Part shown: in pieces, positions 7,915-54,510 of the stretch | How the letters are laid out: every line of letters starts with the position of its first letter | Position numbering within the stretch: position 1 is the stretch's first letter | NCBI GenBank assembly: GCA_045599545.1 | Contig: JAZRWG010000015.1 | Span: 335-64,334 of the forward strand | From: Paludibacteraceae bacterium | GTDB taxonomy: Bacteria; Bacteroidota; Bacteroidia; Bacteroidales; Paludibacteraceae | DNA length: 64,000 nucleotides | Direction of reading: 5' to 3' | Notes under the pieces: model-generated | Seen by the model: only the letters and a program-made list of their open reading frames with translations | Databases searched by the model: none | What the model was told of the DNA's origin: nothing | Position numbers and translations under genes: made by a program

Positions 7915-9975
7915 TTACTTCGGGTCGGTGGAGTAGAAATAGTCAGAAATGGTGGTGACACCATTATTCGTATCTACCGTTTGACGAATCTTACCCGTAG
8001 TGGAATCATAGGTCTTCTTCGAAAGCTTGCGAGAAACCCAAGCGCCATCTGTCCAGTTGAACTCCTCGGTATAAACCTGTTGACCCTTGCTATCATACTG
8101 ATAAGCGCACTTTTCCGAATTATACCAACCGGAATCATTATAAGGATAAACCGACTCGTCGTAACGCTCCACAATATAGAGCGTATCCTTTCCACTCTGT
8201 AAATAGTGATTATAACGGAACATGCCTGTCCAACACCAATGGTTATAATCCCACTTATAACTAATACTCTGTGTCTCTTGCGATGTGCTCTTAAGCGTTT
8301 CCGACTTACTCAAGCCTTCCCAATCTTTGGGATATTGGGAATTGCTATTCCACTTATAGGAAGCGGTCATTACTTGCTGACAATTAAGATAACCATATTC
8401 GCTCTTATTTGAACCCGAACGAATGCCATTATTCCACTCATAACGAGCATCTAACGTCTTCTTATCCCCACAACCGGGCTCATATTCGTACACGCGCTCC
8501 CAATCGTGAGTCCAATCCCCCGCATCCCACACCCAGTGAGTGGATAAAGTTTGACGATTGTCCTCATTATATTCATAAGTAAATCGAGCGGAACCCATCT
8601 TCAGTCCCGGAACGGAATCATAATACGCCTCCTCAATCTTATTGCCACGCTCATCGTAATTGAGCACCGTCCACGTTTTTTGGGTAATATACCATTCTGT
8701 GCCGGTCCATGTTTCGTTATAGGTCGCCACACTCACCCCATCCTTATATTCATTACGCACGCGTGTGTAATCGACCCAATCGGGATCATTGAACTGCTGC
8801 GTTAATGTTTCTGTCAGTTTACCGCCCACATAGGTATAAATCGTCTGATAACCCACCCAAACGCCATCCTCTAACTTCAACGAAGAAGTCTTAATGAGCG
8901 TTGAGCCGGAATAGGTATTCTCATTCTTCTCGCTCTCTATCCACTCACGATTCGTGTCGTCCCACGTGTAATTCGTGACAGATGCTGCTTTACCACTCGA
9001 ATAAGTAGTTCGAGTTCGAGACTGTCCCTTATAGTGGTCTTTACTCCACGTATAACTTTCTTCCAGTGTTTTATTGGCGGTAGAACCATCATATTCCGTC
9101 ACCGTCTTACTTGACTCAACCCAGACTTGATTGGTCTTATTCCACGAGAAAGTCTCCTTCATCGTCACACGGTTATTGGCATTGAACTCCTGCACGGTCT
9201 TAGAACCATTGGTACACTGTCCCCCACTCCACTTGGAGTAGTTCTCGGTGTTGATCTGATTACCTTTAGAATCAAACTCCCAGACTTGGCGCTTGGATAC
9301 TTGCCAATCGTTATTCGCCCAATCATAAGTTTCATCCAAGGTCTTGAGTTTGTTGGGAGAATAAATATATTCCTGAACCGTACGCGACGAGCCCACCCAC
9401 TTGCCTATAGTCGTATTATAAGACGAATAATAATCCGTTCCGACCGCCGTACCTTGGCTATCAAAATGATATTCATACAATGTGGAATAGGTCATCTTTC
9501 CACTTACCAATTTAGACGAGCGAACCATGGTTTGCTTGCCTCCCGTATAACCATATTCGGTGACTGCAGAAGGATCCCACTTTAATTGGGGAGCATTCCA
9601 TGAATACTGAATCTGTGCCGTCTGTTGGTCAGAGGCATTCCACACTTTCTCTGTACGACTCGCACTATTTGCCGTCCAATCATTCGCAGTGGCATCCCAT
9701 TTGAGAGTAAGGGTCATAACCTCGTTCTTGCCCTTATCATCATAAACCTTGTAGGTATTAGAAGTGCCCTTTTTCACGCCATTCGTCCACTGATAAACGA
9801 CGGTGTTAATCTCTTTGTTGTTATCGTCATAGAAATGTTGCTCCAACTTGACATAGTTACCCGCTCCATCCTTGGTAACAATACTGTCCAATAGAGGCGT
9901 GGCCGCTTGTATGGGTGTAAGGGAGTAGAGGAATAGAGGGGTAGAGAGTAATATAAAGAGGTATTTTTTCATCAT
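7915..9975 (-). CDS. secreted 686-aa Trp-rich repeat protein (YD/beta-hairpin-like repeats)
   Basis: Signal peptide MMKKYLFILLSTPLFLYSLTPIQAA. About 14 degenerate 40-48-aa units such as TYDWANNDWQVSKRQVWEFDSKGNQ, FSWNKTNQVWVESSKTVTEYDG and YTWDDTNREWIESEKNENTYSG. 4-nt overlap with the upstream gene. Confidence 0.6.
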   Translation of the reverse strand: MMKKYLFILLSTPLFLYSLTPIQAATPLLDSIVTKDGAGNYVKLEQHFYDDNNKEINTVVYQWTNGVKKGTSNTYKVYDDKGKNEVMTLTLKWDATANDWTANSASRTEKVWNASDQQTAQIQYSWNAPQLKWDPSAVTEYGYTGGKQTMVRSSKLVSGKMTYSTLYEYHFDSQGTAVGTDYYSSYNTTIGKWVGSSRTVQEYIYSPNKLKTLDETYDWANNDWQVSKRQVWEFDSKGNQINTENYSKWSGGQCTNGSKTVQEFNANNRVTMKETFSWNKTNQVWVESSKTVTEYDGSTANKTLEESYTWSKDHYKGQSRTRTTYSSGKAASVTNYTWDDTNREWIESEKNENTYSGSTLIKTSSLKLEDGVWVGYQTIYTYVGGKLTETLTQQFNDPDWVDYTRVRNEYKDGVSVATYNETWTGTEWYITQKTWTVLNYDERGNKIEEAYYDSVPGLKMGSARFTYEYNEDNRQTLSTHWVWDAGDWTHDWERVYEYEPGCGDKKTLDARYEWNNGIRSGSNKSEYGYLNCQQVMTASYKWNSNSQYPKDWEGLSKSETLKSTSQETQSISYKWDYNHWCWTGMFRYNHYLQSGKDTLYIVERYDESVYPYNDSGWYNSEKCAYQYDSKGQQVYTEEFNWTDGAWVSRKLSKKTYDSTTGKIRQTVDTNNGVTTISDYFYSTDPK
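9915..9950. repeat. octamer array (GTAGRGGA family) inside a CDS
   Basis: gtgtaagggagtagaggaatagaggggtagagagta. It encodes LSTPLFLYSLTP of the signal peptide of 7915..9975. Confidence 0.8.
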
Positions 9976-10874
9976 AACGCTAACAATCCTAAACGAGAGA
10001 CTTTATGCTCGTAGGCGAAGGCGTAATAAACGCGCACGCCGAAATCTAAATAATGTATATTCGCTTTATACGATTGCGTGTAAGGAGCCATTGTCAATTG
10101 CCCCTCCTGCCACCTACCTATGCCCTCATTGGAACCGGAGTTCATGCGGAAACAGTCAAAACGCATAAACGCTTGCAAACCCAGCCGATGACGCTCCGCC
10201 ACCTGCCACTCATATCCCACTTGTCCTGCCAAATAGAGATGAAACTTAATATCCGTCTTAGGTCCCTTCTCCATCGGCGTGACGGGCATATCAACAGAGA
10301 GTTTAGACACAGGAATATACATATTCACCACCGGATTATCCATTACCGCCTCTTGCCAATGGATGAGTTCACAAACACCAACAACACCTACATTAAACGT
10401 CACATGATACAGACTCATCGCCAACATAAAAGGCACTTCCAGTTGCAGTTTATTATAGTTCTCCCGCCCCGCCCAATGAACGGTGTCAATAACCTTATAC
10501 CCATTAGGCGAAACCAACGACATAACCGAGGTCGAATCCGCAAGCGTGAACGACGAGGAGGAATAAGTAGCCCCCAATCCAATCAACGGACCAAAATAGA
10601 ACCGTTCGGGAGTCGGCGCATAAGACTCACGCAAATCTATCTTACGAACAAGGAACTGACCTCTATACACCATATCCAAACCAACACTCATGCCCGGCTG
10701 CGCCTTGAGCGGTCCAACTAAAGTGTTATGCGACATGCCGCCACGCACACCCACTTCTACCAAGTCCCAACCCTTGCGTGGCAAAAAAACAGAGGACTTC
10801 TGCTTTAACTGCGCACTCAACGTAGTGGAAAGTGAGAGTGAGAGTAAGAGTAATATGTACGCGAGGCGCTTCAT
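9972..10874 (-). CDS. outer-membrane beta-barrel protein (OMP_b-brl_2-like)
   Basis: 300 aa with signal peptide MKRLAYILLLLSLSLSTTLSAQ. Alternating hydrophobic strands throughout with aromatic-rich strand ends (GVRVYYAFAY). 4-nt overlaps on both sides. Confidence 0.55.
   Translation of the reverse strand: MKRLAYILLLLSLSLSTTLSAQLKQKSSVFLPRKGWDLVEVGVRGGMSHNTLVGPLKAQPGMSVGLDMVYRGQFLVRKIDLRESYAPTPERFYFGPLIGLGATYSSSSFTLADSTSVMSLVSPNGYKVIDTVHWAGRENYNKLQLEVPFMLAMSLYHVTFNVGVVGVCELIHWQEAVMDNPVVNMYIPVSKLSVDMPVTPMEKGPKTDIKFHLYLAGQVGYEWQVAERHRLGLQAFMRFDCFRMNSGSNEGIGRWQEGQLTMAPYTQSYKANIHYLDFGVRVYYAFAYEHKVSRLGLLAL
10829..10855. repeat. hexamer array (GTGAGA / GTAAGA) inside a CDS
   Basis: It encodes LLLLSLSLS of the signal peptide of 9972..10874. 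Confidence 0.7.
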
Positions 10875-11554
10875 TTAGTCGTTAGTTTTTGACCATCTAT
10901 GGTGTAGAAGGTTTCGTTACGTTGGATATAAATCATGCCGTCCTTGAATATCTTTTGGGTGTAGGGGAGTAGAGGAGTAGAGGTGTAGGGTAAGTCCGTG
11001 CGAACGGCAGGGAAACCACGCATAATCGTGGTACACATATACGAAGCCTCCGCCTTATCAGCATTCACCGTGACTTCAGCATAGTATTTCTGCCAATCAT
11101 CATTCAAACCAATCGCCAACGTAAAGCCCTTGGAAACTAAAATATCTTCATTAACATCCGCGTCTCTATGCACTCCCACATCGTCTATCGGTTCCACAAT
11201 CTGATACCACCGGACACAATCTTCTGATACCGGAGGAGTCAACCACCCTTCGGACAAAAGTTGGTCTTTGTTGACCATAAACAGCCAATCGTAAATACGA
11301 TCCACCGGTGCCTGATAAACCTTACAACGCGGTTCAAAAATAGCCTCCAATTCGATATTATCATCCACATCCACCGTGCGGACACGATTCGTGTCCCCGT
11401 CCGACCACGCCACAAAGCGATAACCGGGCAGAGGCTGAGCCTCAATGCGGACTTGTTCGCCACAATCGAACGAGTCCTGCACGACTTCCTGCGCCGTCAC
11501 TTTAGTGACAGTGAACGTGAGAAGTGAGAATAATATGAACGCGAAGCGTTGCAT
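10871..11554 (-). CDS. secreted protein with an N-terminally incomplete InlB-B-repeat-like domain and a conserved C-terminal tail
   Basis: Signal peptide MQRFAFILFSLLTFTVTKVTAQ, then FDCGEQVRIEAQPLPGYRFVAWSDG...ELEAIF (B-repeat-type GY.F..W motif). C-terminus QKIFKDGMIYIQRNETFYTIDGQKLTTK. Confidence 0.55.
   Translation of the reverse strand: MQRFAFILFSLLTFTVTKVTAQEVVQDSFDCGEQVRIEAQPLPGYRFVAWSDGDTNRVRTVDVDDNIELEAIFEPRCKVYQAPVDRIYDWLFMVNKDQLLSEGWLTPPVSEDCVRWYQIVEPIDDVGVHRDADVNEDILVSKGFTLAIGLNDDWQKYYAEVTVNADKAEASYMCTTIMRGFPAVRTDLPYTSTPLLPYTQKIFKDGMIYIQRNETFYTIDGQKLTTK
10961..10991. repeat. octamer array (GTAGGGGA family) inside a CDS
   Basis: It encodes YTSTPLLPYT near the C-terminus of 10871..11554. 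Confidence 0.85.
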
Positions 11555-11558
11555 TTTT

Positions 11559-11585
11559 GGGGAGTAGGGGTGTAGGGGAGTAGGG
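11559..11585. repeat. octamer array (GTAGGGGA family), intergenic
   Basis: ggggagtaggggtgtaggggagtaggg, between 10871..11554 and 11604..12146. Confidence 0.85.
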
Positions 11586-12948: not shown

Positions 12949-13554
12949 TTAAAACAAAAAGGTATCTACCAAAGCGTGAATAGACCTTTTCCCGTCATTA
13001 ACGAGCACAATATCCGCTTTTGAGGCGCACTCCTGCTCGCTCATCTGCGCCGCTATACGAGCACGCACCTGCTCTTCGGTGACGTGGTCGCGCGCCATGG
13101 TGCGAGCGATGCGAATATCCTCCGGTGCGGTGACGCAGATAGTGAGATCACATAAATCATCAAGGTGCGATTCAAAGAGAAGGGCGGATTCAAGGAGTAG
13201 AGGAGTAGAGGGGTAGAGGGGTAGGGTTTGCTCGATATCCTTGCGGACGGCAGGGTGAACAAGGGCGTTGAGACGACGCAAGAGGTCTGGGTTAGAGAAG
13301 ACGCGCTGCGCCACGAGGTCGGTTCGATAAGTATTCCCCTCATAGACATCTGCGCCCAAGAGCGCCGAGATGACTGCCTTGAGTTCAGAAGACTCCACGA
13401 TGAGGCGCTTGGCCTCCTTATCCGTGTCATAGAGCACGTAGCCGCGCGAAGCTATTTCGCGCGCAATCGTGGATTTGCCACTGCCTATGCCGCCGGTGAT
13501 GCCAATGATTTTGGGGGTAGAGGGGTATGGGAGTAGAGGAGTAGGGTTATTCAT
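12949..13554 (-). CDS. coaE: dephospho-CoA kinase
   Basis: IIGITGGIGSGKSTIAREIASRGYVLYDTDKEAKRL P-loop start typical of CoaE. It carries two repeat-derived segments (NPTPLLPYPSTP and LPLYPSTPLLLES). Confidence 0.9.
   Translation of the reverse strand: MNNPTPLLPYPSTPKIIGITGGIGSGKSTIAREIASRGYVLYDTDKEAKRLIVESSELKAVISALLGADVYEGNTYRTDLVAQRVFSNPDLLRRLNALVHPAVRKDIEQTLPLYPSTPLLLESALLFESHLDDLCDLTICVTAPEDIRIARTMARDHVTEEQVRARIAAQMSEQECASKADIVLVNDGKRSIHALVDTFLF
13194..13227. repeat. octamer array (GTAGAGGR) inside coaE
   Basis: It encodes LPLYPSTPLLLES. Confidence 0.85.
13514..13547. repeat. octamer array (GTAGAGGR) at the coaE 5' end / rlmH 3' end
   Basis: It encodes NPTPLLPYPSTP at the CoaE N-terminus and reaches the rlmH stop region. 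Confidence 0.85.
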
Positions 13555-14017: not shown

Positions 14018-14934
14018 TTATGTATCTCAAAGGGATAGGAACCAATGAGGTTGCCATCCACGATAAAATCTGCATTATAATAGCCTAACTGCGGTTCGGC
14101 ATCCAAAGTGAAATAGAGGGATCCCTCCACCGCTTCGCGCTCGTATTCAAACTCCTGCATGGACGAGTAGCCAATTTCGCTGCCCTCAAAGACGCACGTG
14201 CCCGAGCGATCGTTCGTCATCAGTTCGCCGTTGGGGTCTAAAATGCGTAGATAAATGGTCTTCATCCCCGTCTCGCAGGTCACGTTCTTAGCCAACGCAT
14301 AATCGACTTGCAGTTTGGCTATCTGCGACACAATGCGCGTCTTATGGTCGCGTTTATTGAGCGTAATGACCTGGCAAGAAGTGAGTTCGAGCATCGCTGC
14401 GCGATTGACTACCTCTTGCAGTTGGGTGTTCTGATTACGAATCGCCGTATTCTCGCGCGTAATGGTGTTATTGAGTTGACGATAACGGTTGTTCTCCTCC
14501 GTGAGGCGCGTATTCGTAGTATTGAGCGAATCAATCTGATGCACGTAGTTCACCATCACGGCACGCACGGTAGTCAGTTCCTTTTTCAGTTCGGCGATGC
14601 GGCGCGCGGAGGTTGCCTTGGTGATACGCAGTTCCTCCAGCAGGTCCTGTACCCGCTGCTGCTCCTTGGCCAGTTGGTCCTGCAAGGAGTCGTTCTTGAT
14701 GTCAAGGTTACGGAAACCGTCAAACTGAATAGCGAGGTCCTCATAGTCCTCCTCCAGTTGCTCCTTCTCGAACTCCATCTGCTCCACAATCTCCGCCATC
14801 TGGCGGTGCTGGAGGTAATAGACTACGCCCAGCCCGATGAGAGCCACGGCCAAAATAACCACGACGATTATCAAGCCTTTTCGCCTGCCGCCTGTCGCCT
14901 GTAGCCTGTCGCCTGTTAATTTTTCTTCGTTCAT
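14014..14934 (-). CDS. membrane-anchored coiled-coil protein, function unknown
   Basis: 306 aa. One TM helix (LIIVVVILAVALIGLGVVYYL), a long heptad-like acidic/Gln-rich segment and a beta-rich C-terminal domain. ATGA overlaps with murF and rlmH. Confidence 0.6.
   Translation of the reverse strand: MNEEKLTGDRLQATGGRRKGLIIVVVILAVALIGLGVVYYLQHRQMAEIVEQMEFEKEQLEEDYEDLAIQFDGFRNLDIKNDSLQDQLAKEQQRVQDLLEELRITKATSARRIAELKKELTTVRAVMVNYVHQIDSLNTTNTRLTEENNRYRQLNNTITRENTAIRNQNTQLQEVVNRAAMLELTSCQVITLNKRDHKTRIVSQIAKLQVDYALAKNVTCETGMKTIYLRILDPNGELMTNDRSGTCVFEGSEIGYSSMQEFEYEREAVEGSLYFTLDAEPQLGYYNADFIVDGNLIGSYPFEIHK
14881..14916. repeat. heptamer array (CCTGTCG / CCTGTAG) inside a CDS
   Basis: It encodes TGDRLQATGGRR at the N-terminus of 14014..14934. 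Confidence 0.85.
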
Positions 14935-16148
14935 AATAAGGGTAAAACTTTTTCCAATTGCGTGGAGTGCGAACCCTTGATGAGGATGCGCCGTCCTTGC
15001 AACGGATGCGTTTGAAGATATGCAATAAATTGATCTACATTATCAAAAATAGGATACGGAGCCGTCGTAGCCTTGTACTCCTCACCAATCAAGAAAACAC
15101 TGTCCTGCTTCATCTCCAGCAGCGCGTTCACCACGTTCTGATGCTCCTCGTGACTATAGTCTCCTAACTCGCGCATGGCACCTAATATATAGGTGTAGGG
15201 GAGTAGGGGTGTAGGGGAGTAGGGTATCTGGTGTTTGGTGTCCGGTGTCTGGTTGAAGGCATGGATGGCGGCTTGCATGGAGGTAGGATTGGCATTATAA
15301 GCATCCACTACGAGTGTGTTATGTTCCGTTTGAACGAGTTGCGAACGGTGGTTCGTAGGTTCGTACGCGCGAATAGCCGCCAAAGCAGTATCTTCCCCTA
15401 CCCCAAAGAACTTGCCTACCGCCATCGCAGCCGCAATGTTCTCCGCGTTGTAGTCACCCACCAAATGCGTACCCGAGGGCATGGGGACACGCCTGTAGCC
15501 TATCGCCTGTCGCCTGTCGTCTGTCGCCTCCTCAAGCATCTGCTTGAGGTAGTCGTTATCCTCATTGATAAAGATGGTGCCGTTATGCGCCACGAGGTAA
15601 TCGTAGAGTTCGCGTTTGGTGCGTTGCACGCCCTCGAACGAACCAAAACCCTCTAAATGCGCCCGACCCACGTTGGTAATCAGACCGTAATTGGGTTCAG
15701 CAATCTCCACCAGTTCGGTAATATCGCCCGGGTGAGAGGCTCCCATTTCAACGATTGCCATCTCGTGCGCGCGCGTTATAGATAATAAGGTGAGGGGCAC
15801 GCCGAGCGAGTTATTGAGGTTACCCTGCGTGTAATAGAGGTTATACTTGGTTTTGAGCACCGCGGCCGTGAGTTCCTTGGTGGTCGTCTTGCCGTTCGTG
15901 CCGGTGATTCCGATAATAGGCAATCCTAACTCGCGCCGCCAAGCACGGGCTAAGTCCTGCAATTCGCGGAGGGCGTTCTCACCCTTAATGACATAAGCCG
16001 CACCGTCTTGGATGGCTTGGTCTACAAACTGATTGCCGTCGAAATGCTCACCCTTGAGTGCCACAAAGACACAGCCGCGAGTGACCTTGCGGCTGTCTGT
16101 GGTGACGGTGATATATTCTTTATTTCTTATTAGGAAGTTCCAATCCAT
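14931..16148 (-). CDS. murF: UDP-N-acetylmuramoyl-tripeptide--D-alanyl-D-alanine ligase
   Basis: TTDSRKVTRGCVFVALKGEHFDGN and GITGTNGKTTTKE motifs. It contains the repeat-derived segments DDRRQAIGYRRV and YSPTPLLPYTY. Confidence 0.9.
   Translation of the reverse strand: MDWNFLIRNKEYITVTTDSRKVTRGCVFVALKGEHFDGNQFVDQAIQDGAAYVIKGENALRELQDLARAWRRELGLPIIGITGTNGKTTTKELTAAVLKTKYNLYYTQGNLNNSLGVPLTLLSITRAHEMAIVEMGASHPGDITELVEIAEPNYGLITNVGRAHLEGFGSFEGVQRTKRELYDYLVAHNGTIFINEDNDYLKQMLEEATDDRRQAIGYRRVPMPSGTHLVGDYNAENIAAAMAVGKFFGVGEDTALAAIRAYEPTNHRSQLVQTEHNTLVVDAYNANPTSMQAAIHAFNQTPDTKHQIPYSPTPLLPYTYILGAMRELGDYSHEEHQNVVNALLEMKQDSVFLIGEEYKATTAPYPIFDNVDQFIAYLQTHPLQGRRILIKGSHSTQLEKVLPLL
15193..15225. repeat. 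octamer array (GTAGGGGA) inside murF
   Basis: It encodes YSPTPLLPYTY. Confidence 0.85.
15491..15528. repeat. heptamer array (CCTGTCG family) inside murF
   Basis: It encodes DDRRQAIGYRR. Confidence 0.85.
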
Positions 16149-17588: not shown

Positions 17589-17632
17589 AAGTGTAAAGTG
17601 TATAGTGTAAAGTGTAAAGTGGGAAGTGGGCA
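17589..17632. repeat. heptamer array (GTGTAAA / GTGGGAA), intergenic
   Basis: Lies between the MFS gene start and the skp stop. It is the reverse complement of the TTTACAC units at 48391. Confidence 0.85.
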
Positions 17633-18159: not shown

Positions 18160-18705
18160 TTATTTCGCTCCTAATTTATGTAACACTTGATCGGATATAT
18201 CCATCTTGGAACTGAGGTAGATGAGTGCCGGATCGGACGAACGGTCCTTGACGATATTGATCTTCTGCTCCGAAGCTATATCCTGTATAGCCGCAAAGAT
18301 GTCATCCTGAATCGGCTTGATGAGTGCCTCTCTTTTCTTATCCAGTTCGCCTTGCGGACCGAAATACTTATGCTTGAGTTCCAGTGCCTCGTTCTCTTTA
18401 TCCAATATCTCCTGTTCACGCTTTTGCTGCATAGCATCGGAAAGGAAGATCTGTTCCGTTTGATAATTAGCCTCCAGCACCTTGGCCTCCTGCTCCACGG
18501 CGTCAATCTCTTTTTGCCAACGGCGCGTAATCAGACTCAGTTGTTCGTTCGCCGATTCATAGGCGGGCAAGTTCTTAAGGATATAAGCTACATCCACATA
18601 AGCAACCGATGTACTCTCTTTTGCAAAGACCGTGCCAACAGTTAAAAGAAGGCAACAGGCGACAGGCAACAGGCGATAGGTAATAATCTTAAAACTCTTT
18701 TTCAT
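18160..18705 (-). CDS. OmpH/Skp-family periplasmic chaperone (second copy)
   Basis: 181 aa with the same architecture. Part of its signal peptide (TYRLLPVACCLLL) is encoded by a heptamer array. Confidence 0.8.
   Translation of the reverse strand: MKKSFKIITYRLLPVACCLLLTVGTVFAKESTSVAYVDVAYILKNLPAYESANEQLSLITRRWQKEIDAVEQEAKVLEANYQTEQIFLSDAMQQKREQEILDKENEALELKHKYFGPQGELDKKREALIKPIQDDIFAAIQDIASEQKINIVKDRSSDPALIYLSSKMDISDQVLHKLGAK
18651..18680. repeat. heptamer array (CAACAGG / CGACAGG) inside a CDS
   Basis: Reverse orientation of the CCTGTCG family. It encodes part of the Skp-like signal peptide. Confidence 0.8.
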
Positions 18706-22811: not shown

Positions 22812-24159
22812 TAATCAACAAGCGGAAAGCATCCGCCACTTTTTTAACCGGTACTACTTGTATCTTCGTCTTATCCAAGGCTACTTTCTGTCCGGCAGGA
22901 ACGAGGATCCGCTCAAAGCCCAATTTCTCCGCCTCACGGATACGTTGTTCCAACCGATTGACGGGACGTATCTCGCCCGCCAGTCCCACTTCGCCGCAAA
23001 GACACGTCTTCGCGTCCAAGGGGATATCCATATTAGAACTGAGCACTGCCGCCAAGACCGCCAAATCAATGGCAGGGTCATTGACGCGCAAGCCACCTGC
23101 TATGTTGAGGAACACGTCCTTCAAAAGCAGTTTAAATCCCACCCGTTTTTCCAGTACCGCAAGCAGCATATTCAGTCGCCGTGCATCAAATCCGGTACTG
23201 CTGCGTTGGGGGGTACCGTACGCCGCACTGCTCACTAACGCTTGCACCTCGATAAGGAAGGGACGCACGCCCTCAACGGCCGCAGCAATAGCAATGCCGC
23301 TTAGTCCCTCGCGAGAAGTGGAAAGCAGCAGTTCCGATGGATTGGTCACTTCGCGCAAGCCGTCGTGCTGCATCTCGAAGATACCCAACTCGGAAGTAGA
23401 ACCAAAGCGGTTCTTTTGCGCCCGCAGGATGCGGTACATATAATGTTGATCCCCCTCAAACTGCAAGACCGTGTCCACGATATGCTCCAGCACTTTGGGG
23501 CCTGCTAACGAACCCTCCTTGTTGATATGTCCAATGAGGATAAAGGGGATGTTTCTTTCTTTTGCAAATTGCAGTATCCGCGCCGCGCACTCCTTGACTT
23601 GCGTGAGACTGCCGATAGTAGCCTCTGCCGCGTCGGTACCGATGGTCTGAATGGAGTCGATGACCACCACTTCGGGTTCGACCTCGCTCACGGTATCGAA
23701 AATACGCTCTAAGTTCGTTTCGCTGATGATATATAAGTTCTCGGGATTACCGGCCAAACGCTCTGCGCGAAGGCGTATTTGGCGATTACTCTCCTCGCCG
23801 CTGGCATAGAGGGTTTTGGTTTGACCGAGTTGCATGAGCACCTGTAAGGCGAGGGTCGATTTGCCGATGCCGGGTTCACCGCCGAGCAGCACGAGCGAAC
23901 CGGGAACCAGTCCACCGCCTAACACGCGATTGAACTCGCCGTTGTGCATATCCATCCGCATGTCCTCCGTAGCTTTCACCTCCTGCAAACGAGTAGGTTT
24001 GCTCACTTTCAACTTTAAACTTTCAACTTTCAACTTAGAGGAAGTAAAAACTTCCTCCTCGATAGTCCCCCACTCTCCGCACACAGGACAGCGTCCTAAC
24101 ATCTGCGGAACTTTTGCCCCGCATGCCGAACAAACATATTGAATAGCCGACTTACTCAT
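22801..24159 (-). CDS. radA: DNA repair protein RadA/Sms
   Basis: Zinc finger CSACGAKVPQMLGRCPVCGEWGT, Walker A GGEPGIGKSTL and a Lon-like C-terminal domain. The linker contains the repeat-derived KLKVESLKLKV. Confidence 0.92.
   Translation of the reverse strand: MSKSAIQYVCSACGAKVPQMLGRCPVCGEWGTIEEEVFTSSKLKVESLKLKVSKPTRLQEVKATEDMRMDMHNGEFNRVLGGGLVPGSLVLLGGEPGIGKSTLALQVLMQLGQTKTLYASGEESNRQIRLRAERLAGNPENLYIISETNLERIFDTVSEVEPEVVVIDSIQTIGTDAAEATIGSLTQVKECAARILQFAKERNIPFILIGHINKEGSLAGPKVLEHIVDTVLQFEGDQHYMYRILRAQKNRFGSTSELGIFEMQHDGLREVTNPSELLLSTSREGLSGIAIAAAVEGVRPFLIEVQALVSSAAYGTPQRSSTGFDARRLNMLLAVLEKRVGFKLLLKDVFLNIAGGLRVNDPAIDLAVLAAVLSSNMDIPLDAKTCLCGEVGLAGEIRPVNRLEQRIREAEKLGFERILVPAGQKVALDKTKIQVVPVKKVADAFRLLISEK
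24004..24036. repeat. heptamer array (AACTTTC / AACTTTA) inside radA
   Basis: It encodes KLKVESLKLKV. Confidence 0.85.
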
Positions 24160-24160
24160 A

Positions 24161-24200
24161 ATTCACAATTCATCATTCCATCATTCATCAATCCATCATT
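24161..24200. repeat. irregular 7-8-mer array (ATTCATC / ATCCATC), intergenic
   Basis: It fills the whole radA-rnz spacer. Similar units occur inside murI at 29724-29768. Confidence 0.75.
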
Positions 24201-25039
24201 CAAAATTCAAACGTCTCCCTTTCTTTGGCTAAAACGGTATTTGGGAACACCTCTTGCGCCTCTTTGAGGAATTGTTCGTGGTCATCCACGCGCGCCGAGA
24301 AGTGACCGATAATCAGTTTCTTCGCTCCCGCCGCTTGGGCAACCATCGCCGCTTGACGCGCCGTGGAGTGCATGGTGGGTTGGCAGCGAGCGATATGCTC
24401 CTCCGTGTAGGTTGCCTCATGGTAAAGGACATCTACCCCCTCTATCATTGTGGCCGTCTTTTTCGAATAACGCGTGTCCGAGCAGTACGCGTAGCGGCGT
24501 TGAGAGTTAACAAAGAACTCACCCATCAGTCCACGTTCACGATGATGCTCGGTGAAAAGGAAACCACACGAAGGCACACTATGGTTGAGCGGAATAGTCT
24601 CCACGGTCAAGGTACGGTCCTCAAAGATAACCGCCTGCTTGCGAGGGTCAATAGCATGGAAGACAACTTCGTAACTCATCCCTTTGCAGTAATAATCAAG
24701 CCATGGTTTCATCAGTTTCTCCAAGTCCGCGTGAGCATAGATATGCAGCGGTTGGGTGCGGTGCAGCATGCCCAAGGTGGAGATGAGTCCAATCAAGCCA
24801 AAGCAGTGGTCGCCGTGCAAGTGCGAAATAAAGACGCTGTACAGACGCGAGGTATGTACCCCCATCTGACGGAGCGTTATCTGTACGCCCTCGCCGCAAT
24901 CGACAAGGAACGACTTATCGCATAACGTCACAATCTGCCCCGAAGGCGAGTTTTGGTAGGTTGGCAACGCACTACCCGACCCTAATATGACTACATTTCC
25001 TTTATTCACTTTAAACTTTAAACTGCTTGACCGCGTCAA
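24200..25039 (-). CDS. rnz: ribonuclease Z
   Basis: ILGSGSALPT, HLHGDHCFGL and HFSAR motifs, collinear with Bacteroides RNase Z. The start is uncertain: the ATG at 25039 overlaps the upstream gene by 29 nt, whereas the GTG at 25009 (VNKGNVVILG) would follow its stop directly. Confidence 0.85.
   Translation of the reverse strand: MTRSSSLKFKVNKGNVVILGSGSALPTYQNSPSGQIVTLCDKSFLVDCGEGVQITLRQMGVHTSRLYSVFISHLHGDHCFGLIGLISTLGMLHRTQPLHIYAHADLEKLMKPWLDYYCKGMSYEVVFHAIDPRKQAVIFEDRTLTVETIPLNHSVPSCGFLFTEHHRERGLMGEFFVNSQRRYAYCSDTRYSKKTATMIEGVDVLYHEATYTEEHIARCQPTMHSTARQAAMVAQAAGAKKLIIGHFSARVDDHEQFLKEAQEVFPNTVLAKERETFEF
25007..25024. repeat. heptamer array (AAACTTT) spanning a gene junction
   Basis: It encodes the last residues (QFKV) of the DUF4954-like gene and, in another frame, LKFKV of the rnz long ORF. 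Confidence 0.8.
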
Positions 25040-35497: not shown

Positions 35498-37870
35498 CTA
35501 ATGGGCTTCGAGCCAGTTAGTACCCACGCCCACTTCGGCAATCAGGGGCACGGACAGGTGCACCACATTCTGCATCTCAGTGGTCACTATGTGTTTGACT
35601 TGTTCTATCTCGTCGGCGGGCACGTTGAAGTTTAACTCATCGTGTACCTGCATAATCATTTGGGCATGCAAGTTGAGCCGCTTAAACTCTTTGGCAATGC
35701 TGACCATCGCCATCTTGATAATATCCGCTGCCGTTCCTTGAATGGGCGCGTTGACGCTGTTACGTTCGGCGAACGAACGCACCACCGAGTTATGACTGTT
35801 GATATCGGGCAGGTAACGCTTGCGCCCGAACAACGTCTCCACATATCCTTGTTCACGGGCCTTCTGCTTCTGCGCCTCAATGAAAGCAATAATCTGCGGG
35901 AAAGCGGCGAAGTAGTCATCTATAAGTTGTTTGGCCTCGCTCCGGGGGCATTGCAGTTGTTGTGCCAGCCCAAAGGCGGAGATTCCGTAGATGATTCCGA
36001 AATTAGCGGTTTTGGCACGACGGCGCTGTTCCTTACTCACCTCTTCGATGGGTACTTTGAATATCTTGGCGGCCGTAGCGGCGTGAATATCCTGTCCCTT
36101 GCGGAAGGCTTCAATCAGATGCTCATCCTGCGAGAGATGGGCCATGAGCCTCAGTTCTATCTGCGAATAATCGGCAGAGAGGAAGACGCATCCCTCATCG
36201 GGTATGACAGCCCTACGAATGAGTTGTCCCCGTTCGGAGCGGATGGGCAGGTTCTGTAGGTTCGGGTTCGAGGACGATAGTCGTCCCGTAGCCGTAACCG
36301 TTTGATTATAGGTCGTATGAATCTTGCCCGTCTTAGGGTTGATATACCCCGGAAGAGAGGTAATGTAAGTCGAAATCAGTTTCTTGAGTTCGCGGTAATC
36401 TAATATCTTATCCACCACCTCATGCCGTTCGCGGATACCCATGAGCACCTCCTCCGAAGTGGAGTACGCCCCCGTCTTGGAGCGTTTGGCTTTAGGGTCA
36501 AGTTGGAGGTGATCAAAGAGCACCTCACCCACCTGCTTGGGGGAGTTGATATTAAAGGTCATGCCAGCTAAATCATAAATCTCTTGCTCTATGGTCTGAG
36601 CCTCGGCACTGAGTTGTTTTTCGGCTTCATGCAGGATGGAGATATCAAATCTCACCCCCGCTGCTTCCATCTCGCGCAGCACCTCAACCAAGGGCAGTTC
36701 CACCTCGTTGTATAGGTTCCATAACGCGCTATCCGCTTTGAGTGCCTCCCAATTAGGTTTGACTGCCGGATTATAACTCGCTTCGGGGTTGAGGAGGTAG
36801 GAGCATAGACGAGACTTTGTCTCGTCGATCGCTGCGCTGAAAGACCGCTGCGCTGAAAGACCGCTCACTTCGTTCGCTGAAGGATCGGCTTCGCCTGAAG
36901 GACTATTATCGGCGAAGAGGTCGAGGGTGGCCTCCGACTTCGTCTTTTTTCTAGAAGAACTAGGGTTACTAGGAGAACTAGGGTCACTAGGATTACTAGG
37001 AGAATTAGGGGCATTTTTAAGTAAAGATTGGAACTCGAGGTCTTCGTAGATGGGCATCAGTTGACTCCAGTCTTTTTCTTTAAACTTTAAACTTTCCACT
37101 TTAAACTCTTCATGTAACGGCACGTCCGTCTTGATGGTTGCCAAGAAACGCGAGAAACGAATAGCTTCGGCTTGCGATTCCACTCTTTCTTTCAGAGCTC
37201 CCTTCAACTCATCCGTGTGCGCGAGCAGGTTATCAATACTTCCGAACTGATTGAGCAACGCCGTAGCGGTTTTTTCTCCTACCCCTTTACATCCGGGGAT
37301 ATTATCGGACGCGTCGCCCATCAGACCTAAGAAATCTATCACCTGTTGGGTGTTATGCAAACCGTATTTGGCGCACACCTCTGCCGGTCCCATCTGTTCA
37401 AAGCCTCCCGTATGCCGTGGGCGATAGATATGGATATTATTCGTCACCAATTGTCCGTAATCCTTATCGGGCGTGGCCATAAAAACCTCATATCCTTCCC
37501 GTTCCGCAATACCCGCTACGGTACCGATGACATCGTCCGCCTCGTATCCAGGAACAATCAAGGCCGGTATATTCATAGCCTTCAAAATATTCTCAATAAC
37601 GGGAACTGCCATTCGTATATCCTCGGGTGTCTCTTCCCGCTGCGCCTTATAGGCGGCATAAGCCTCGTGACGGAAGGTAGGACCATGAGGATCAAAACCC
37701 ACCGCGATATGAGTGGGTTTAAGACGCTTGATGAGGTCCTCCAAGGTAGTGACAAAACCATAAATAGCGGACGTGTTCACGCCCTTCGAATTCATGCGAG
37801 GGACACGAATAAAAGCGTAATAAGCGCGATAGATCATCGCATAAGCGTCTATGAGGAGCAGTCGTTTCAC
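35498..37870 (-). CDS. polA: DNA polymerase I, short form without a recognisable 3'-5' exonuclease domain
   Basis: 5' nuclease domain (res 1 to about 285), then about 100 low-complexity/repeat-derived residues, then the polymerase domain (LYNEVELPLVEVLREME, DYSQIELR, QVHDEL). 790 aa in total. Confidence 0.9.
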   Translation of the reverse strand: MKRLLLIDAYAMIYRAYYAFIRVPRMNSKGVNTSAIYGFVTTLEDLIKRLKPTHIAVGFDPHGPTFRHEAYAAYKAQREETPEDIRMAVPVIENILKAMNIPALIVPGYEADDVIGTVAGIAEREGYEVFMATPDKDYGQLVTNNIHIYRPRHTGGFEQMGPAEVCAKYGLHNTQQVIDFLGLMGDASDNIPGCKGVGEKTATALLNQFGSIDNLLAHTDELKGALKERVESQAEAIRFSRFLATIKTDVPLHEEFKVESLKFKEKDWSQLMPIYEDLEFQSLLKNAPNSPSNPSDPSSPSNPSSSRKKTKSEATLDLFADNSPSGEADPSANEVSGLSAQRSFSAAIDETKSRLCSYLLNPEASYNPAVKPNWEALKADSALWNLYNEVELPLVEVLREMEAAGVRFDISILHEAEKQLSAEAQTIEQEIYDLAGMTFNINSPKQVGEVLFDHLQLDPKAKRSKTGAYSTSEEVLMGIRERHEVVDKILDYRELKKLISTYITSLPGYINPKTGKIHTTYNQTVTATGRLSSSNPNLQNLPIRSERGQLIRRAVIPDEGCVFLSADYSQIELRLMAHLSQDEHLIEAFRKGQDIHAATAAKIFKVPIEEVSKEQRRRAKTANFGIIYGISAFGLAQQLQCPRSEAKQLIDDYFAAFPQIIAFIEAQKQKAREQGYVETLFGRKRYLPDINSHNSVVRSFAERNSVNAPIQGTAADIIKMAMVSIAKEFKRLNLHAQMIMQVHDELNFNVPADEIEQVKHIVTTEMQNVVHLSVPLIAEVGVGTNWLEAH
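36831..36905. repeat. 16-mer duplication GCTGCGCTGAAAGACC x2 plus degenerate copies, inside polA
   Basis: Exact copies at 36831-36846 and 36847-36862. It encodes GLSAQRSFSAA. Confidence 0.8.
36953..37011. repeat. nonamer array (NNNACTAGG x6) inside polA
   Basis: It encodes PSNPSDPSSPSNPSS (3-aa period). Confidence 0.9.
37077..37108. repeat. heptamer array (AAACTTT) inside polA
   Basis: It encodes EEFKVESLKFKEK. Confidence 0.85.
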
Positions 37871-37874: not shown

Positions 37875-37934
37875 AGTTGAAAGTTTAAAGTTGAAAGTTG
37901 AAAGAAGTCGTTTAGTTTTGTAAGTTTAAAGTAG
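37875..37934. repeat. heptamer array (AAAGTTG / AAAGTTT) in the polA-ybeY spacer, reaching into the ybeY 3' end
   Basis: agttgaaagtttaaagttgaaagttgaaag, then degenerate copies encoding STLNLQN. Confidence 0.8.
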
Positions 37935-48186: not shown

Positions 48187-48392
48187 AAAACTTACAAAAA
48201 ATAAACTTTATCTTGATGGGGGTTTCGCTCGTGATTATCATTCTGGGCTTTGCGCTAATGGTAGGTCCCGCTTCCGGAGCGGAATATAATCCCGATATCT
48301 TCTCGCCTCGCCGTATAACGGTAGGTCCGATGATTGCCTTGTTTGGTTTTATCTTTATGGTGGTAGGTATCCTCTATCGTCCTAAAAAATAA
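48183..48392 (+). CDS. DUF3098-like two-helix membrane protein
   Basis: 69 aa. Conserved partner downstream of ftsX in Bacteroidota. Confidence 0.7.
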   Translation: MKNLQKINFILMGVSLVIIILGFALMVGPASGAEYNPDIFSPRRITVGPMIALFGFIFMVVGILYRPKK

Positions 48393-48429
48393 CTTTACAC
48401 TTTAAACTTTACACTTTACACTTTAAACT
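48391..48429. repeat. heptamer array (ACTTTAC / ACTTTAA), intergenic
   Basis: It fills the DUF3098-uppP spacer. Confidence 0.85.
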
Positions 48430-48438
48430 ATAAGATGT

Positions 48439-49983: not shown

Positions 49984-51108
49984 ATGAAATTAAGTCAATT
50001 TAAGTTCAAACTGCCGGATAGTCAACTGGCTCAGTATCCGGCACCCTATAGGGACGAGGCTCGTCTGATGGTGGTTCATCGTAAGACGGGTCAAATCGAA
50101 CAAATGCTCGTGAAGGACCTCATCAACCTCTTTGACGAGGGAGATCTGTTTATCTTTAACGATACGGCCACTTTCCCAGCTCGCCTTTATGCTAAGAAGG
50201 AGAAGACGCAAGCGGAGATAGAGGTATTCCTTCTGCGCGAGTTGCAGCACAAGAACCGCTATTGGGATGTGTTGGTGGATCCTGCGCGTAAGATACGTGT
50301 AGGCAATAAACTCAATTTCGATGACGATCCCGCTATCCAGGCCGAAGTGGTGGATAACACCACCTCCCGTGGGCGCACCTTCCGTTTTCTAACGGACTAT
50401 GCGGATGACGAGTTTGTGAATAAAATGTTTGCAATCGGTCACACTCCCCTGCCCTACTATATTGAGCGTCCCTTAGCCGAGGAACTGCGCGAGGAGTTTA
50501 AGGAGGCATATAACGTAGAGGATGATATCGATTTAGATGCCTATATTGATAAACTGGACGTGGAGCGTTATCAATCGGTCTTTGCCAAACATATCGGTGC
50601 GGTAGCTGCTCCGGCAGCGTGCCTGCATTTCTCCAAGCAGTTGCTTAAGCGAATGGAGATTCAGGGGATAGAATACGAGTGTTTGACGAGTCATATGTCG
50701 TTGGGTAATTTCAAGACGGTAGATGTAGAGGACCTCACCAAGCACCGCATTGAGTCCGAGCAGATCAGCATTCCACAAGCGTTAGTAAATGCCGTAGAAA
50801 AGACGCACGCTAAGGGTAAGCGCGTCTGCGCCGTAGGTACGGAAGTTATGCGGGCGTTGGAGCACGTAGTGGGCACCGGCGGTCACATCAAAGCGTATGA
50901 AGGTTGGACCAATAAGTTCATTTATCCGCCCTATGATTTTACAGTAGCGAATGCGTTCTTCGTTAATTTCTACATGCCGCTGAGCAGCCAGCAGTTGATG
51001 GTGCATGCCTTTGGCGGCTTTGAGAATATCAAGGAAGCATACGACATGGCTCTGGAGGAAGGATATAAGTTCGGTGATTACGGAGATGCAATGCTTATTA
51101 TTGATTAG
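49984..51108 (+). CDS. queA: tRNA preQ1(34) S-adenosylmethionine ribosyltransferase-isomerase
   Basis: MKLSQFKFKLPDSQLAQYPA..RDEARLMV N-terminus. 374 aa. Confidence 0.9.
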   Translation: MKLSQFKFKLPDSQLAQYPAPYRDEARLMVVHRKTGQIEQMLVKDLINLFDEGDLFIFNDTATFPARLYAKKEKTQAEIEVFLLRELQHKNRYWDVLVDPARKIRVGNKLNFDDDPAIQAEVVDNTTSRGRTFRFLTDYADDEFVNKMFAIGHTPLPYYIERPLAEELREEFKEAYNVEDDIDLDAYIDKLDVERYQSVFAKHIGAVAAPAACLHFSKQLLKRMEIQGIEYECLTSHMSLGNFKTVDVEDLTKHRIESEQISIPQALVNAVEKTHAKGKRVCAVGTEVMRALEHVVGTGGHIKAYEGWTNKFIYPPYDFTVANAFFVNFYMPLSSQQLMVHAFGGFENIKEAYDMALEEGYKFGDYGDAMLIID

Positions 51109-51159
51109 GCGGATAGGCAGAGAGGCGGAGAGGCTGAGAGGCAGAGAGGCAGAGAGGAG
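51108..51159. repeat. octamer array (GCRGAGAG / GCTGAGAG), intergenic
   Basis: It starts in the queA stop codon and ends 8 nt before the ung ATG (…gaggagataaacgATG). Confidence 0.85.
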
Positions 51160-53579: not shown

Positions 53580-54465
53580 AACGGCCGGTTTCTGCTTTGG
53601 AGTCACCGGAGCGATACGCAAGGCGGAGGAGGAACTCAAAAACGGGTCTCTTTACTGCTTAGGGGATATTGTGCATAACGGTCAAGAGGTAGAGCGACTG
53701 AGTCAGTTGGGGCTTGTCACGATTGACGGCGGGCAGTACAAGGCACTGCATAACGCGCGGGTGCTGTTACGGGCACACGGCGAACCGCCTCAGACGTACG
53801 AAACGGCCAAGCGCAATGGGATTGAGATTATTGACGCTTCCTGTCCCGTGGTGCTGAACTTGCAGAAGCGGATTCGCGAGACGTATGAGAAGACACGCTT
53901 GGATAACGGACAGATACTTATTTTTGGTAAACCGGGTCACGCAGAGGTGATTGGGTTGCAAGGTCAGACGCACAACACGGCGATAGTGATAGAGAACGAG
54001 AAGGACCTCAATAAGGTGGATTTCTCGCGTCCTATCTATCTCTTCTCGCAAACGACCATGTCCATTGAGGCATTTCAGTCCATCAGCGAAGCGGTCCTAC
54101 AGCGCAGCGGTCTTGTTAATATATATGACACCATCTGTCGCAACGTAGCCAATCGGGTGGATTCGATTCGTCAGTTTGCGCAGGGGCAGGATATTGTGTT
54201 GTTTGTAGGAGGCAAGAAGAGTTCGAATGCCAAGGTGCTCTTTGAGCACTGTAAGGCTGCCAATCCCAACTCCTATTTCATCGAAAGTCCGGAGGATCTT
54301 AACGCTTTAAACTTTCAAACTACTTTAAACTTTAAACTTTCAAATAATCGTGCCCCTTTGGGGCTAAGAACTTTAAACTTTAGAGTAGGAATAACGGGTG
54401 CCACCTCCACCCCTCTTTGGCTCATGGAACAAGTCAAGGAGGCCCTTCTTAACTATCAACTTTAA
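53551..54465 (+). CDS. ispH: 4-hydroxy-3-methylbut-2-enyl diphosphate reductase
   Basis: GFCFGV, GDIVHN and GITGATSTP motifs. A repeat-derived segment of about 26 aa (LNFQTTLNFKLSNNRAPLGLRTLNFR) lies just before the last conserved motif. Confidence 0.9.
   Translation: MPSLIVTIDKTAGFCFGVTGAIRKAEEELKNGSLYCLGDIVHNGQEVERLSQLGLVTIDGGQYKALHNARVLLRAHGEPPQTYETAKRNGIEIIDASCPVVLNLQKRIRETYEKTRLDNGQILIFGKPGHAEVIGLQGQTHNTAIVIENEKDLNKVDFSRPIYLFSQTTMSIEAFQSISEAVLQRSGLVNIYDTICRNVANRVDSIRQFAQGQDIVLFVGGKKSSNAKVLFEHCKAANPNSYFIESPEDLNALNFQTTLNFKLSNNRAPLGLRTLNFRVGITGATSTPLWLMEQVKEALLNYQL
54305..54383. repeat. heptamer arrays (AAACTTT family) inside ispH
   Basis: They encode LNALNFQTTLNFKLSNN…LRTLNFR. Confidence 0.85.
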
Positions 54466-54510
54466 AACTTAAAAACTTCTATAAACTTTAAACTATAAAC
54501 TTTAAACTTT
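54451..54510. repeat. heptamer array (AAACTTT / AAACTAT) across the ispH stop and up to the pfkA ATG
   Basis: aactatcaactttaaaacttaaaaacttctataaactttaaactataaactttaaacttt, then ATG. Confidence 0.85.

Follow-up and report, generated by a model that had tools for sequence, protein, structure and literature searches.

We analyzed a 64,000-nt stretch of a genome assembly from a Paludibacteraceae bacterium (GCA_045599545.1, contig JAZRWG010000015.1, positions 335 to 64,334), hereafter called the window, and found that tandem arrays with units of 7 or 8 nt occur both in its intergenic spacers and, in frame, inside its open reading frames (ORFs), including those of essential genes. We propose that these arrays are dispersed mosaic repeat elements of very small size, specific to one lineage, a Paludibacteraceae clade, and that their copies are modified by local slippage and filtered by selection; we assign this reading a probability of about 60%. 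Judging from homologous sequences, protein loops appear to have been turned into hypervariable peptide segments that are specific to a Paludibacteraceae clade.

Arrays of the same families in spacers and reading frames

Arrays were called with Tandem Repeats Finder (TRF) on the window, and overlapping rows were merged, which left 64 arrays (the main ones are listed in Table 1). Period 7 or 8 was found in 35 of the 64. As the chance expectation we used 20 second-order Markov shuffles of the window, which gave 2.2 such arrays on average and never more than 6. Arrays of period 7-9 cover 1,510 nt (2.4% of the window), and 8-mers are as common as 7-mers. About 16 of the roughly 31 strong arrays lie in ORFs, seven of them in essential genes. 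Given that about half of the arrays are coding, and that ORFs cover about 93% of the window while spacers amount to only about 4.1 kb, we estimate that array density per base is about 13-fold higher in spacers than in ORFs.

A preliminary description of the window had placed such arrays inside coaE, murF, radA, murI, hflX, polA and ispH. TRF found an array at every coordinate reported there, with a sequence that fits the description, and all seven gene names scored above the curated cut-offs of NCBIfam. When the arrays were mapped onto the ORFs, those reported lay inside the named genes, in frame and at the residues given, and the encoded peptides could be read as described: SPTPLLPYT and DDRRQA in MurF, FLNFKLSTLN in MurI, LSASQPLS in HflX, KVESLKLK in RadA and KVESLKFK in PolA. 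We also found coding arrays that had not been reported, at 9920-9946, 10961-10988, 14881-14916, 15223-15253 and 18650-18680.

Coding and intergenic arrays belong to the same repeat families, as had also been claimed, and they share exact strings of 22-28 nt. The longest of these (28 nt) is common to murF site a and the spacer at 11559, another of 24 nt is common to radA and the spacer at 37875, and one of 22 nt is found in hflX and in the spacer at 35463, which are 250 nt apart. In addition, the CATCATT(C) family occurs both in the spacer at 24156-24202 and in murI site B. The 7-nt units share the form NNACTYT (AGTNNAR on the other strand), with A/C variation at two unit positions, and the purine-rich 8-nt units, which include GTAGGGGA and AGAGGCNG, share the form AGRGGNNN. 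The 8-mer families have the AGRGG core in common and can merge inside one array, as in the related locus L077 (related loci are given L numbers throughout). Long arrays show higher-order periods of 24 and 32 nt, and where the units of a long 8-mer array differ, the difference is mostly an A/G transition. The units of one array change in concert; for example, the radA units all end in GAA in the window and all end in GAG in the relative L005.

The arrays in genes are subject to constraints of frame and strand. With a period of 7 or 8, three units are read in all three frames, and it takes three units to return to the original frame. Read on its purine strand, GTAGGGGA presents TAG in every frame once three units have been passed; TCCCCTAC is open. 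Pure AAACTTT is closed on both strands, and the coding arrays of this family are mixtures with CAACTTT or CCACTTT in which TAA is never in frame. The preliminary description had pointed out that all six coding GTAGGGGA arrays have the pyrimidine strand as the sense strand. This observation holds, but it carries no special signal, because TAG in all frames of the purine strand fully explains the bias. Selection on array length had also been proposed from the intact frames, which merely restates that an essential gene must stay in frame. Since frame-keeping is a precondition for observing an array in an essential gene, it is no evidence for a special control of length.

Protein segments and their turnover among relatives

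Relatives are named Paludibacteraceae, and the same array families were found at many loci in metagenome-assembled genomes (MAGs) of related Bacteroidales and Paludibacteraceae. Most of the coding segments correspond to insertions between secondary-structure elements of solved homologues. Relative to E. coli MurF (1gg4), murF site a is a 13-residue insertion just before the strand YILGAM; relative to structure 1b73, murI site A adds 6 residues and site B about 25; the hflX array segment is a 17-residue insertion compared with 8a57, and the ispH segment is an 18-residue insertion compared with 3dnf, located before VGITGATSTP. The word ‘insertion’, used for all of these segments in the preliminary description, is therefore apt for MurF, MurI, IspH and HflX, but not for the internal coaE segment or for radA, where the array has replaced existing sequence almost without change of length. 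No gap is needed to align the coaE segment with LSRLEAPLVFL in the structure of Thermus CoaE (1uf9), so that its last leucines supply a beta strand, and it is kept between the window and locus L001. The radA slot is occupied in relatives of 88-92% identity by KLRVESGELRG or by TGDRRPVT (CGACCGG family); in all, three repeat families occur in this linker among relatives, at a total protein length of 451-454 residues.

Alignment of orthologues supported the earlier view that the coding segments are lineage-specific, in that they are missing from the solved structures and from outgroup MurI and CoaE proteins. Outgroup CoaE proteins begin directly at M(I/L)IGITGG, and CoaE homologues are hypervariable at the N-terminus and just before the ESA(L/I)LFE motif. 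The position of the segments in loops or linkers, which had been raised as a question, is indicated both by the structure comparison and by an AF2 model of the window MurI (63 homologues, mean pLDDT 88). In this model site A (residues 107-117) is coil with a pLDDT of 72-76, and site B (residues 216-231) is coil with a pLDDT below 50 and down to 36.

MurI provides the clearest view of turnover. In an alignment of 121 proteins, the loops at both sites are short in most of the hits furthest from the window (about 58-65% identity), and inside the clade the length ranges from 268 to 338 residues, with the difference lying mainly at sites A and B. Site B is hypervariable across the clade, and at site A at least six families were found across species, including AACTTTN, TCCCCTAC, ACACCAG, CAGCCTCT and AGAGGCAG. 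Arrays are also polymorphic between close relatives, as had been anticipated. Site A differs by a 15-nt indel and substitutions in L003, whose MurI protein is 96-98% identical, and L004, which has 88% nucleotide identity to the window, lacks the 3' 48 nt of the ispH segment, with a 14-nt direct repeat at the bounds. L004 also carries a GTTGAGA array upstream of cmk, at a place where the window genes overlap.

We also compared the window with L001, a syntenic 21-kb locus with about 68-91% protein identity gene by gene. L001 holds 5 arrays, compared with 13 in the corresponding 23.8 kb of the window. It retains repeat-derived peptides at the MurI, MurF, CoaE and RadA sites, often from another family. 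The hflX array and the N-terminal extension of ORF 14014-14934 are missing in L001. At murF site b, L005 carries an AGGCGGA 8-mer array in place of the CGCCTGT array of the window, and neither array is found in L001. Two gene junctions show the same kind of difference. At the polA-hflX junction, L001 has an overlapping stop and start codon (ATTAATGG), and the array of the window lies exactly between the two codons. At the ompH-MFS junction, both L001 and L005 have an overlapping TAATG, which is again split exactly by an array in the window. Elsewhere, spacer arrays are located directly 3' of stop codons, ahead of terminator or promoter modules. Their orientation relative to transcription is mixed for both 7-mers and 8-mers; on the plus strand about nine of the spacer 8-mer arrays are G-rich and three are C-rich, a difference that we consider not significant.

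Table 1. Positions of tandem arrays in the window (position 1 is its first nucleotide)
Position	Strand	Array	Location or encoded peptide
1378..1462		AGAGGCGG 8-mer, 10.6 copies	Spacer; directly after stop codon of ORF 1473-2294
3609..3687		AGAGGCGG, 9.8 copies	Spacer; abuts stop codon of ORF 3687-4892
5063..5190		AGGCGGAA, 15.9 copies, 32-nt higher-order period	Spacer; abuts stop codon of ORF 5191-5640
6313..6344		GAAAGGCG, 4 copies	Divergent spacer
7711..7749		GCCTCTCC	Spacer; begins at stop codon of ORF 6512-7711; in inverted repeat I1
9920..9946	-	8-mer	Residues 10-19 of ORF 7915-9975 (start codon uncertain)
10961..10988	-	8-mer	Residues 189-198 of ORF 10871-11554
11559..11585		GGGGAGTA	Fills spacer
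13193..13227	-	8-mer, GTAGRGGN family	coaE, internal; LPLYPSTPLLL, just before conserved ESALLFE
13512..13547	-	MNNPTPLLPYPSTP 8-mer	coaE, N-terminal; precedes P-loop motif GITGGIGSGKS
14881..14916	-	TCGCCTG 7-mer	N-terminal extension LTGDRLQATGGRR of ORF 14014-14934
15192..15253	-	GTAGGGGA, then GGTGTCT 7-mer	murF site a; TPDTKHQIPYSPTPLLPYT
15490..15529	-	CGCCTGT 7-mer	murF site b; DDRRQAIG
17589..17628		AAGTGTA 7-mer	Spacer between ompH and MFS genes
18650..18680	-	AGGCAAC 7-mer	N-terminal region of OmpH-family ORF 18160-18705
24004..24036	-	AAGTTGA/AAGTTTA 7-mers	radA linker, after zinc ribbon; KLKVESLKLK
24156..24202		CATCATT(C)	Fills spacer between radA and upstream gene
29381..29416	+	AAACTTT family	murI site A; FLNFKLSTLN
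29698..29768	+	Composite: TCCCCTAC units, CCATCATT units, CAGCGCAGCGG piece	murI site B; about 25 residues
35184..35220	-	GGCTGAGA 8-mers	hflX N-domain; LSASQPLSP
35463..35499		AGGCTGAG	Spacer between polA stop codon and hflX start codon
36830..36865	-	16-mer, 2.2 copies	polA, within array region 36830..37108
36951..37010	-	9-mer, about 6 copies	polA, Pro/Ser-rich linker
37078..37107	-	AAACTTT 7-mer	polA
37875..37904		AGTTGAA 7-mer	Spacer upstream of polA
48391..48433		ACTTTAC 7-mer	Spacer; ends 5 nt before ATG
51107..51157		AGGCAGAG	Fills spacer between ORFs 49984-51108 and 51167-51829
54305..54383	+	AAACTTT units around hairpin core AATCGTGCCCCTTTGGGGCTAAG (54346-54368)	ispH insertion; LNFQTTLNFKLSNNRAPLGLRTLNFR
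54458..54511		AAACTTT family	From last ispH codons to next ATG
57631..57671		CCTTTCCG	Spacer; preceded by duplicated 78-nt terminator cassette (direct repeat D5)
58580..58650		AGGCGGA type, then at once inverted CCCTACTC	Spacer; after second copy of 78-nt cassette

Two of the host genes have further features of their own. HflX (34186-35457, minus strand) contains a second lineage-specific insertion relative to solved HflX structures, the 10 residues NWRDNPKDRR, which has no tandem array and is conserved in L001. DNA polymerase I (35498-37870, minus strand; 790 residues) has no 3'-5' exonuclease domain. Its 5'-nuclease domain (residues 1-286) and polymerase domain (residues 374-789) match those of Taq polymerase and are joined by an 87-residue low-complexity linker; the polA arrays lie in and next to this linker, which occupies the position expected for the 3'-5' exonuclease domain. 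All 120 of the 120 best homologues (at least 71% identical, several of them named Paludibacteraceae) have 766-790 residues and no exonuclease Pfam domain, so that the loss is family-wide. We considered the exonuclease-less enzyme as a cause of the arrays and rejected it, as the loss long predates the array load of this lineage and extends far beyond it; given that it is common to all 120 homologues, these data do not tie it to the arrays.

Cores, proposed dispersal and competing explanations

Some arrays contain non-repetitive cores, which allow copies to be followed between genes and genomes. A 40-nt string that includes the 23-nt hairpin core of the ispH insertion is identical in the window and in murI site A of L124, from another species. 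A metagenome scan recovered 23 copies of the 23-mer in 21 contigs. About 15 of the 23 copies have the fixed core (TTGACTTGTCAA)-ATAATCGT-(GCCCCTTTGGGGC)-TAAGAA, and about 15 are bordered on both sides by 7-mer arrays of the CAACTAT, CAATTAT or CAATTGT type; the double-hairpin layout can be written (hairpin1)-AATAATCGT-(GCCCCTTTGGGGC)-TAAGAA. The stems covary between copies (5-bp stem GCCCC/GGGGC), and the core is preceded by CGTG or CGTT, not by CGTC. Read on the opposite strand, it resembles a hairpin followed by a T-run, as in a terminator. In L132, a methyltransferase ORF carries a complete in-frame core close to its C-terminal end, which makes this the third gene with such a copy, and core-bearing elements form both spacers around a small gene in L145. 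Another core, AGACGGCTTCT, is embedded in 7-mer arrays at seven loci; the triplet in front of it is TAG where the copy lies in a spacer and CAG or GAG where it lies in MurI. In addition, the ends of GTAGRGGN arrays are constant, following the pattern GGGNGT-[AGRGGNGT]3-5-AGGG(T) both in the window and at twelve related loci, and cassettes of a terminator plus an array are duplicated within the window. The recurrence of the hairpin and AGACGGCTTCT cores in different genes and genomes, together with the fixed termini, points to dispersed mosaic elements rather than to independent local microsatellites.

The duplicated cassettes have the following structure. A 78-nt cassette occurs twice, at 57551-57628 and 58511-58588 (95% identity), and consists of the terminator hairpin GAGCCCCGTGCAnACACACGAGGCTC, then GTTAGCTTTAGTAGTTAGTTTTAGTTTT and then GGCTGATAGG; each copy runs into an 8-mer array. 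The second of these arrays (58580-58650) consists of an AGGCGGA-type purine array set head-to-head with a CCCTACTC pyrimidine array, whose partial complementarity would allow them to fold back on each other. Another duplicated cassette, of 118 nt, comprises a promoter, a terminator and the beginning of an array, and its copies are separated by 1,452 nt. The window also contains two inverted paralogous genes with AAA_14 domains, 3687-4892 (minus strand) and 6512-7711 (plus strand); their 3' ends and the AGAGGCGG arrays beside them make up an inverted repeat of 93 nt with 91% complementarity. The duplicated and inverted sequences of this region fall at 3528-3761, 4980-5097 and 7637-7729.

The hairpin core, as AATAATCGT-hairpin-TAAGAAC, is also found inside structured units of about 95 nt (L146, 3100-3540; also L133, L134, L140 and L142). 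These units begin like the reverse complement of a tRNA-Thr 3' end, each then has a terminator-like hairpin, and three of them stand in tandem beside a tRNA-Thr(CGU) gene. They match no Rfam family. Where the core-bearing units are in tandem, in L146 and L133, the only neighbouring tRNA gene that ARAGORN identified was tRNA-Thr. Rfam at gathering scores gave no match in the window, and only ordinary tRNAs in the core-bearing metagenome loci.

On the reading of the arrays as dispersed mosaic elements, the building blocks would be the NNACTYT and AGRGGNNN units and the occasional non-repetitive cores. New copies would reach new sites by copy-and-paste or templated insertion, and they may be self-propagating (‘selfish’). 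Once in place, arrays would expand, contract and become homogenized through replication slippage and unequal exchange, which we infer from the higher-order periods, the concerted changes within arrays and the indels between strains. Purifying selection would leave only the harmless copies, in agreement with the pattern of those observed: in spacers they are found from a stop codon to the following start codon or terminator, and in proteins at the ends or in linkers and loops at the surface. An array inside a gene would survive only if its length keeps the frame, if it is read on the strand without stops and if its unit variants avoid in-frame stops. A tolerated loop would then serve as a neutral landing pad, where later indels swap one family for another, and such swapping could lead to hypervariable segments in otherwise conserved essential enzymes.

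Several points weigh against this proposal. Neither a target-site duplication nor a terminal inverted repeat was seen at two clean presence/absence junctions, and no transposase, RAYT or reverse transcriptase was found among the part of the window ORFs that was scanned. The 48-nt ispH indel with its 14-nt direct repeat fits recombination or slippage between units equally well. Because the window lineage is an outgroup to the relatives compared, gain and loss are not strictly resolved. The length-neutral segments of coaE and radA need either an insertion with a compensating deletion or the replacement of a patch. Finally, exact GTAGGGGA arrays occur in unrelated phyla, and some units could arise repeatedly via DNA metabolism. 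Among the matches listed in genome contigs, exact arrays of GTAGGGGA (and of GTAGGGGT) with 3-12 units were found in more than 100 loci (L007-L123), whose hosts include filamentous cyanobacteria (among them Okeania, Dapis, Trichodesmium and Nostoc), Mesorhizobium, Acidobacteriota, Streptomyces, Verrucomicrobiales and Pirellulaceae. This distribution reflects either a recurrent origin of some units or a widespread activity that makes them.

We therefore considered other origins. If the arrays arose purely locally, by slippage of chance proto-repeats at each site in a slippage-prone lineage and with no movement between loci, then the 24- and 32-nt higher-order periods, the concerted changes such as that in radA and the predominance of A/G transitions between units would all be accounted for; the GTAGGGGA arrays of many unrelated phyla would likewise suggest recurrent origin, and the family-wide lack of a Pol I proofreading domain may conceivably provide a slippage-prone background. 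However, such an origin seems rather unlikely, because it leaves unexplained the non-repetitive cores of 23-40 nt that are identical across genes and species (with 23 copies in metagenomes), the fixed termini of arrays, the mosaic cassettes duplicated in the window, the exchange of unrelated families with different periods at one site, and the arrays inside TAATG overlaps, where there is no proto-repeat. We also considered a so far unrecognized sequence-specific DNA-synthesis or transposition activity that writes tandem units with fixed ends into nicks or gaps, possibly an HUH/RAYT-like nuclease-ligase that acts on GTAG-containing single strands, or a polymerase or reverse transcriptase that reiterates a template. 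We regard this as improbable. If true, it would account for the finding of identical GTAGGGGA arrays in phyla as distant as cyanobacteria and Acidobacteriota, as well as in Mesorhizobium and elsewhere, and the arrays would be mobile micro-satellites of a new class, with essential proteins remodelled by them.

The placement of the arrays could also mean that they are functional and positively selected, with spacer arrays or cores acting as RNA or DNA signals (3'-UTR stabilizers, terminators, uncouplers of translational coupling or G-quadruplex regulators) and protein segments selected to provide disordered variable surfaces, a role that has been proposed for the tandem repeats of Borgs. Spacer arrays do lie right after stop codons, before terminators or exactly between coupled genes, and similar positions are given for REPs and for G-rich heptamers (PMC3733652 and PMC4692102, respectively). 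Moreover, the stems of the hairpin core covary and its opposite strand looks like a terminator, GTAGRGGN arrays hold about four G-tracts, and the internal coaE segment, which supplies beta-strand residues, is kept in L001. Nevertheless, we strongly doubt this explanation: arrays occur in both orientations relative to transcription, many unrelated families are found at the same places, arrays come and go between close relatives with no pattern by gene function, and the protein segments are disordered loops without conserved sequence. In an essential gene each single slip of 7 or 8 nt would be lethal, which is a cost and not a design. The AAACTTT and AGAGGCGG units are unable to form strong G-quadruplexes, and we rejected the G-quadruplex as a general explanation, as only the GGGG-containing family qualifies. 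Because the window comes from a 69.6-kb contig of an apparent MAG, chimeric or mis-assembled low-complexity sequence was considered as well. However, the arrays are 27-128 nt long, shorter than typical reads, and all reading frames are intact. The same families recur at the same gene sites, with intact frames, in independent ENA, Logan and NCBI assemblies from different samples and assemblers, so that an artefact, which the preliminary description had named as a possible refutation, is very unlikely, to the point of being negligible.

Two vehicles of variation and a strand effect were also examined and set aside. A scan of viral contigs with the AGACGGCTTCT core gave no match, and a phage vector was rejected on this basis. 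A diversity-generating retroelement was rejected because there is no pair of template and variable repeats, and the variation is A/C at two unit positions, not adenine-specific. GC skew is negative over minus-strand genes and positive over plus-strand genes, and flips at about 39.6 kb and about 56.8 kb. Because it mirrors gene orientation, with no signal of a replication origin in the window, the direction of replication is unreadable from the window, and a replication-strand bias of the arrays was dropped as an explanation. Other repeats in the window are a perfect 11-nt tandem array, TATGTTCTATG (6.3 copies, 100% matches, 6232-6300), which lies in the divergent spacer 6046-6511 and is unrelated to the 7- and 8-mer families, and a run of 19 G at 307-325.

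Relation to known repeats and meaning for the family

The nearest counterparts are repetitive extragenic palindromes (REP elements, tagged by GTAG or CGTC) and Rickettsia palindromic elements (RPE) located within genes. As described by Di Nocera et al. (2013, PMC3733652), these are short dispersed repeats located just 3' of ORFs, between co-oriented or convergent genes, of which a fraction lies in frame in housekeeping proteins, including DNA polymerase I and repair proteins; those in genes add 20-80 residues while function is kept, often at termini, and BIME-like mosaics are formed. The arrays of the window are similar in that they are short, high-copy, lineage-specific and dispersed, lie mainly 3' of ORFs between co-oriented or convergent genes with a minority in housekeeping genes, and form mosaics. 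Therefore, the view of the preliminary description that the phenomenon was undescribed needs to be narrowed: in-frame decoration by short repeats is already on record for REP/RPE, and it is the micro-tandem form for which we found no account. In the literature covered, no paper contained a GTAGGGGA dimer string, and a search for work on repeats of Bacteroidales or Paludibacteraceae yielded no description of the phenomenon.

There are also clear differences. REP/RPE units are palindromes of 20-150 bp, whereas here the units are mostly non-palindromic tandem units of 7 or 8 nt. REP/REPIN sequences are imperfect palindromes of 20-40 bp that fold into a stem-loop, whereas the units and arrays of the window lack self-complementary parts, and a stem, of 5 bp, is confined to the rarer core. 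REP sequences carry a conserved GTAG or CGTC at the foot of the stem; GTAG is present in every GTAGRGGN unit, but no stem adjoins it. They are also associated with a RAYT gene (a Y1 HUH transposase) in the same genome, and none of the ORFs scanned in the 64 kb of the window matched a transposase. RPEs are palindromic elements of about 100-150 bp with a family consensus. The arrays of the window share with them in-frame insertion in conserved genes at surface positions, but the coding inserts are 27-79 nt long and are tandem arrays. Replacement of one family by another at a single loop, as seen here, is not part of the cited portions on REP/RPE. The terminal inverted repeats and target-site duplications of miniature inverted-repeat transposable elements (MITEs) were found neither at the two clean junctions nor around the cores, which sit between direct 7-mer arrays.

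Short tandemly repeated repetitive (STRR) sequences, or heptamer repeats, of cyanobacteria and Xanthomonas are another close parallel. According to Rehm et al. (2015, PMC4692102; Mrazek 2007 is cited there), they consist of about four units, lie within 50 bp of ORF ends and between co-oriented genes, and form several families per genome; they are under-represented in coding sequence and are interpreted through G-quadruplex formation, and the mechanism of their spread is given as unknown. The present arrays resemble them as dispersed tandem arrays of 7 nt (here also 8 nt) in several families at many loci, and among the matches listed, GTAGGGGA arrays identical to those of the window occur in many cyanobacteria. 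In contrast to STRR sequences, about half of the arrays here are in frame in ORFs, including essential genes, even though their density is about 13-fold lower in ORFs; most families are unable to form G-quadruplexes, 8-mers are equally common, and arrays are linked to cores.

The tandem repeats of Borgs reportedly have units divisible by three when they occur in ORFs, and each array is said to have its own local origin. In the present case, unit lengths of 7 or 8 nt are not divisible by three, arrays of one family are found again and again across the genome, and it is bacterial chromosomes that carry them. What the two have in common is the occurrence of repeats both between and within genes and the disordered peptide segments that they encode; Borg repeats are described as pervasive and fast-evolving (bioRxiv 10.1101/2022.05.18.492195).

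Contingency loci likewise have short tandem units in ORFs, and gain or loss of a unit shifts the frame as it would here. They are found in dispensable surface or restriction genes, in which the frameshift acts as an on/off switch. The host genes of the window, however, are coaE, murF, murI, ispH, hflX, radA and polA, in which a frameshift would be lethal. Compared with REP/RPE elements and heptamer repeats, the present arrays differ in five respects: their tandem units of 7 or 8 nt are not palindromes, roughly half of them are coding, families are swapped at loops, TAATG overlaps are split, and there are cores that can be traced.

If our proposal is true, then very small repeats keep entering the essential enzymes of an entire family of gut and rumen bacteria and are tolerated there, and loops of MurI, MurF, IspH, CoaE, HflX, RadA and Pol I have become hypervariable disordered segments. 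The segments would provide a natural map of insertion-tolerant positions in drug-target enzymes and strain-level markers for metagenomics, and they would be a warning for annotation and for length filters based on homology. The arrays would also offer a tractable system for studying how STRR-like heptamer and octamer repeats spread, in which the non-repetitive cores make it possible to follow copies between loci and between genomes.

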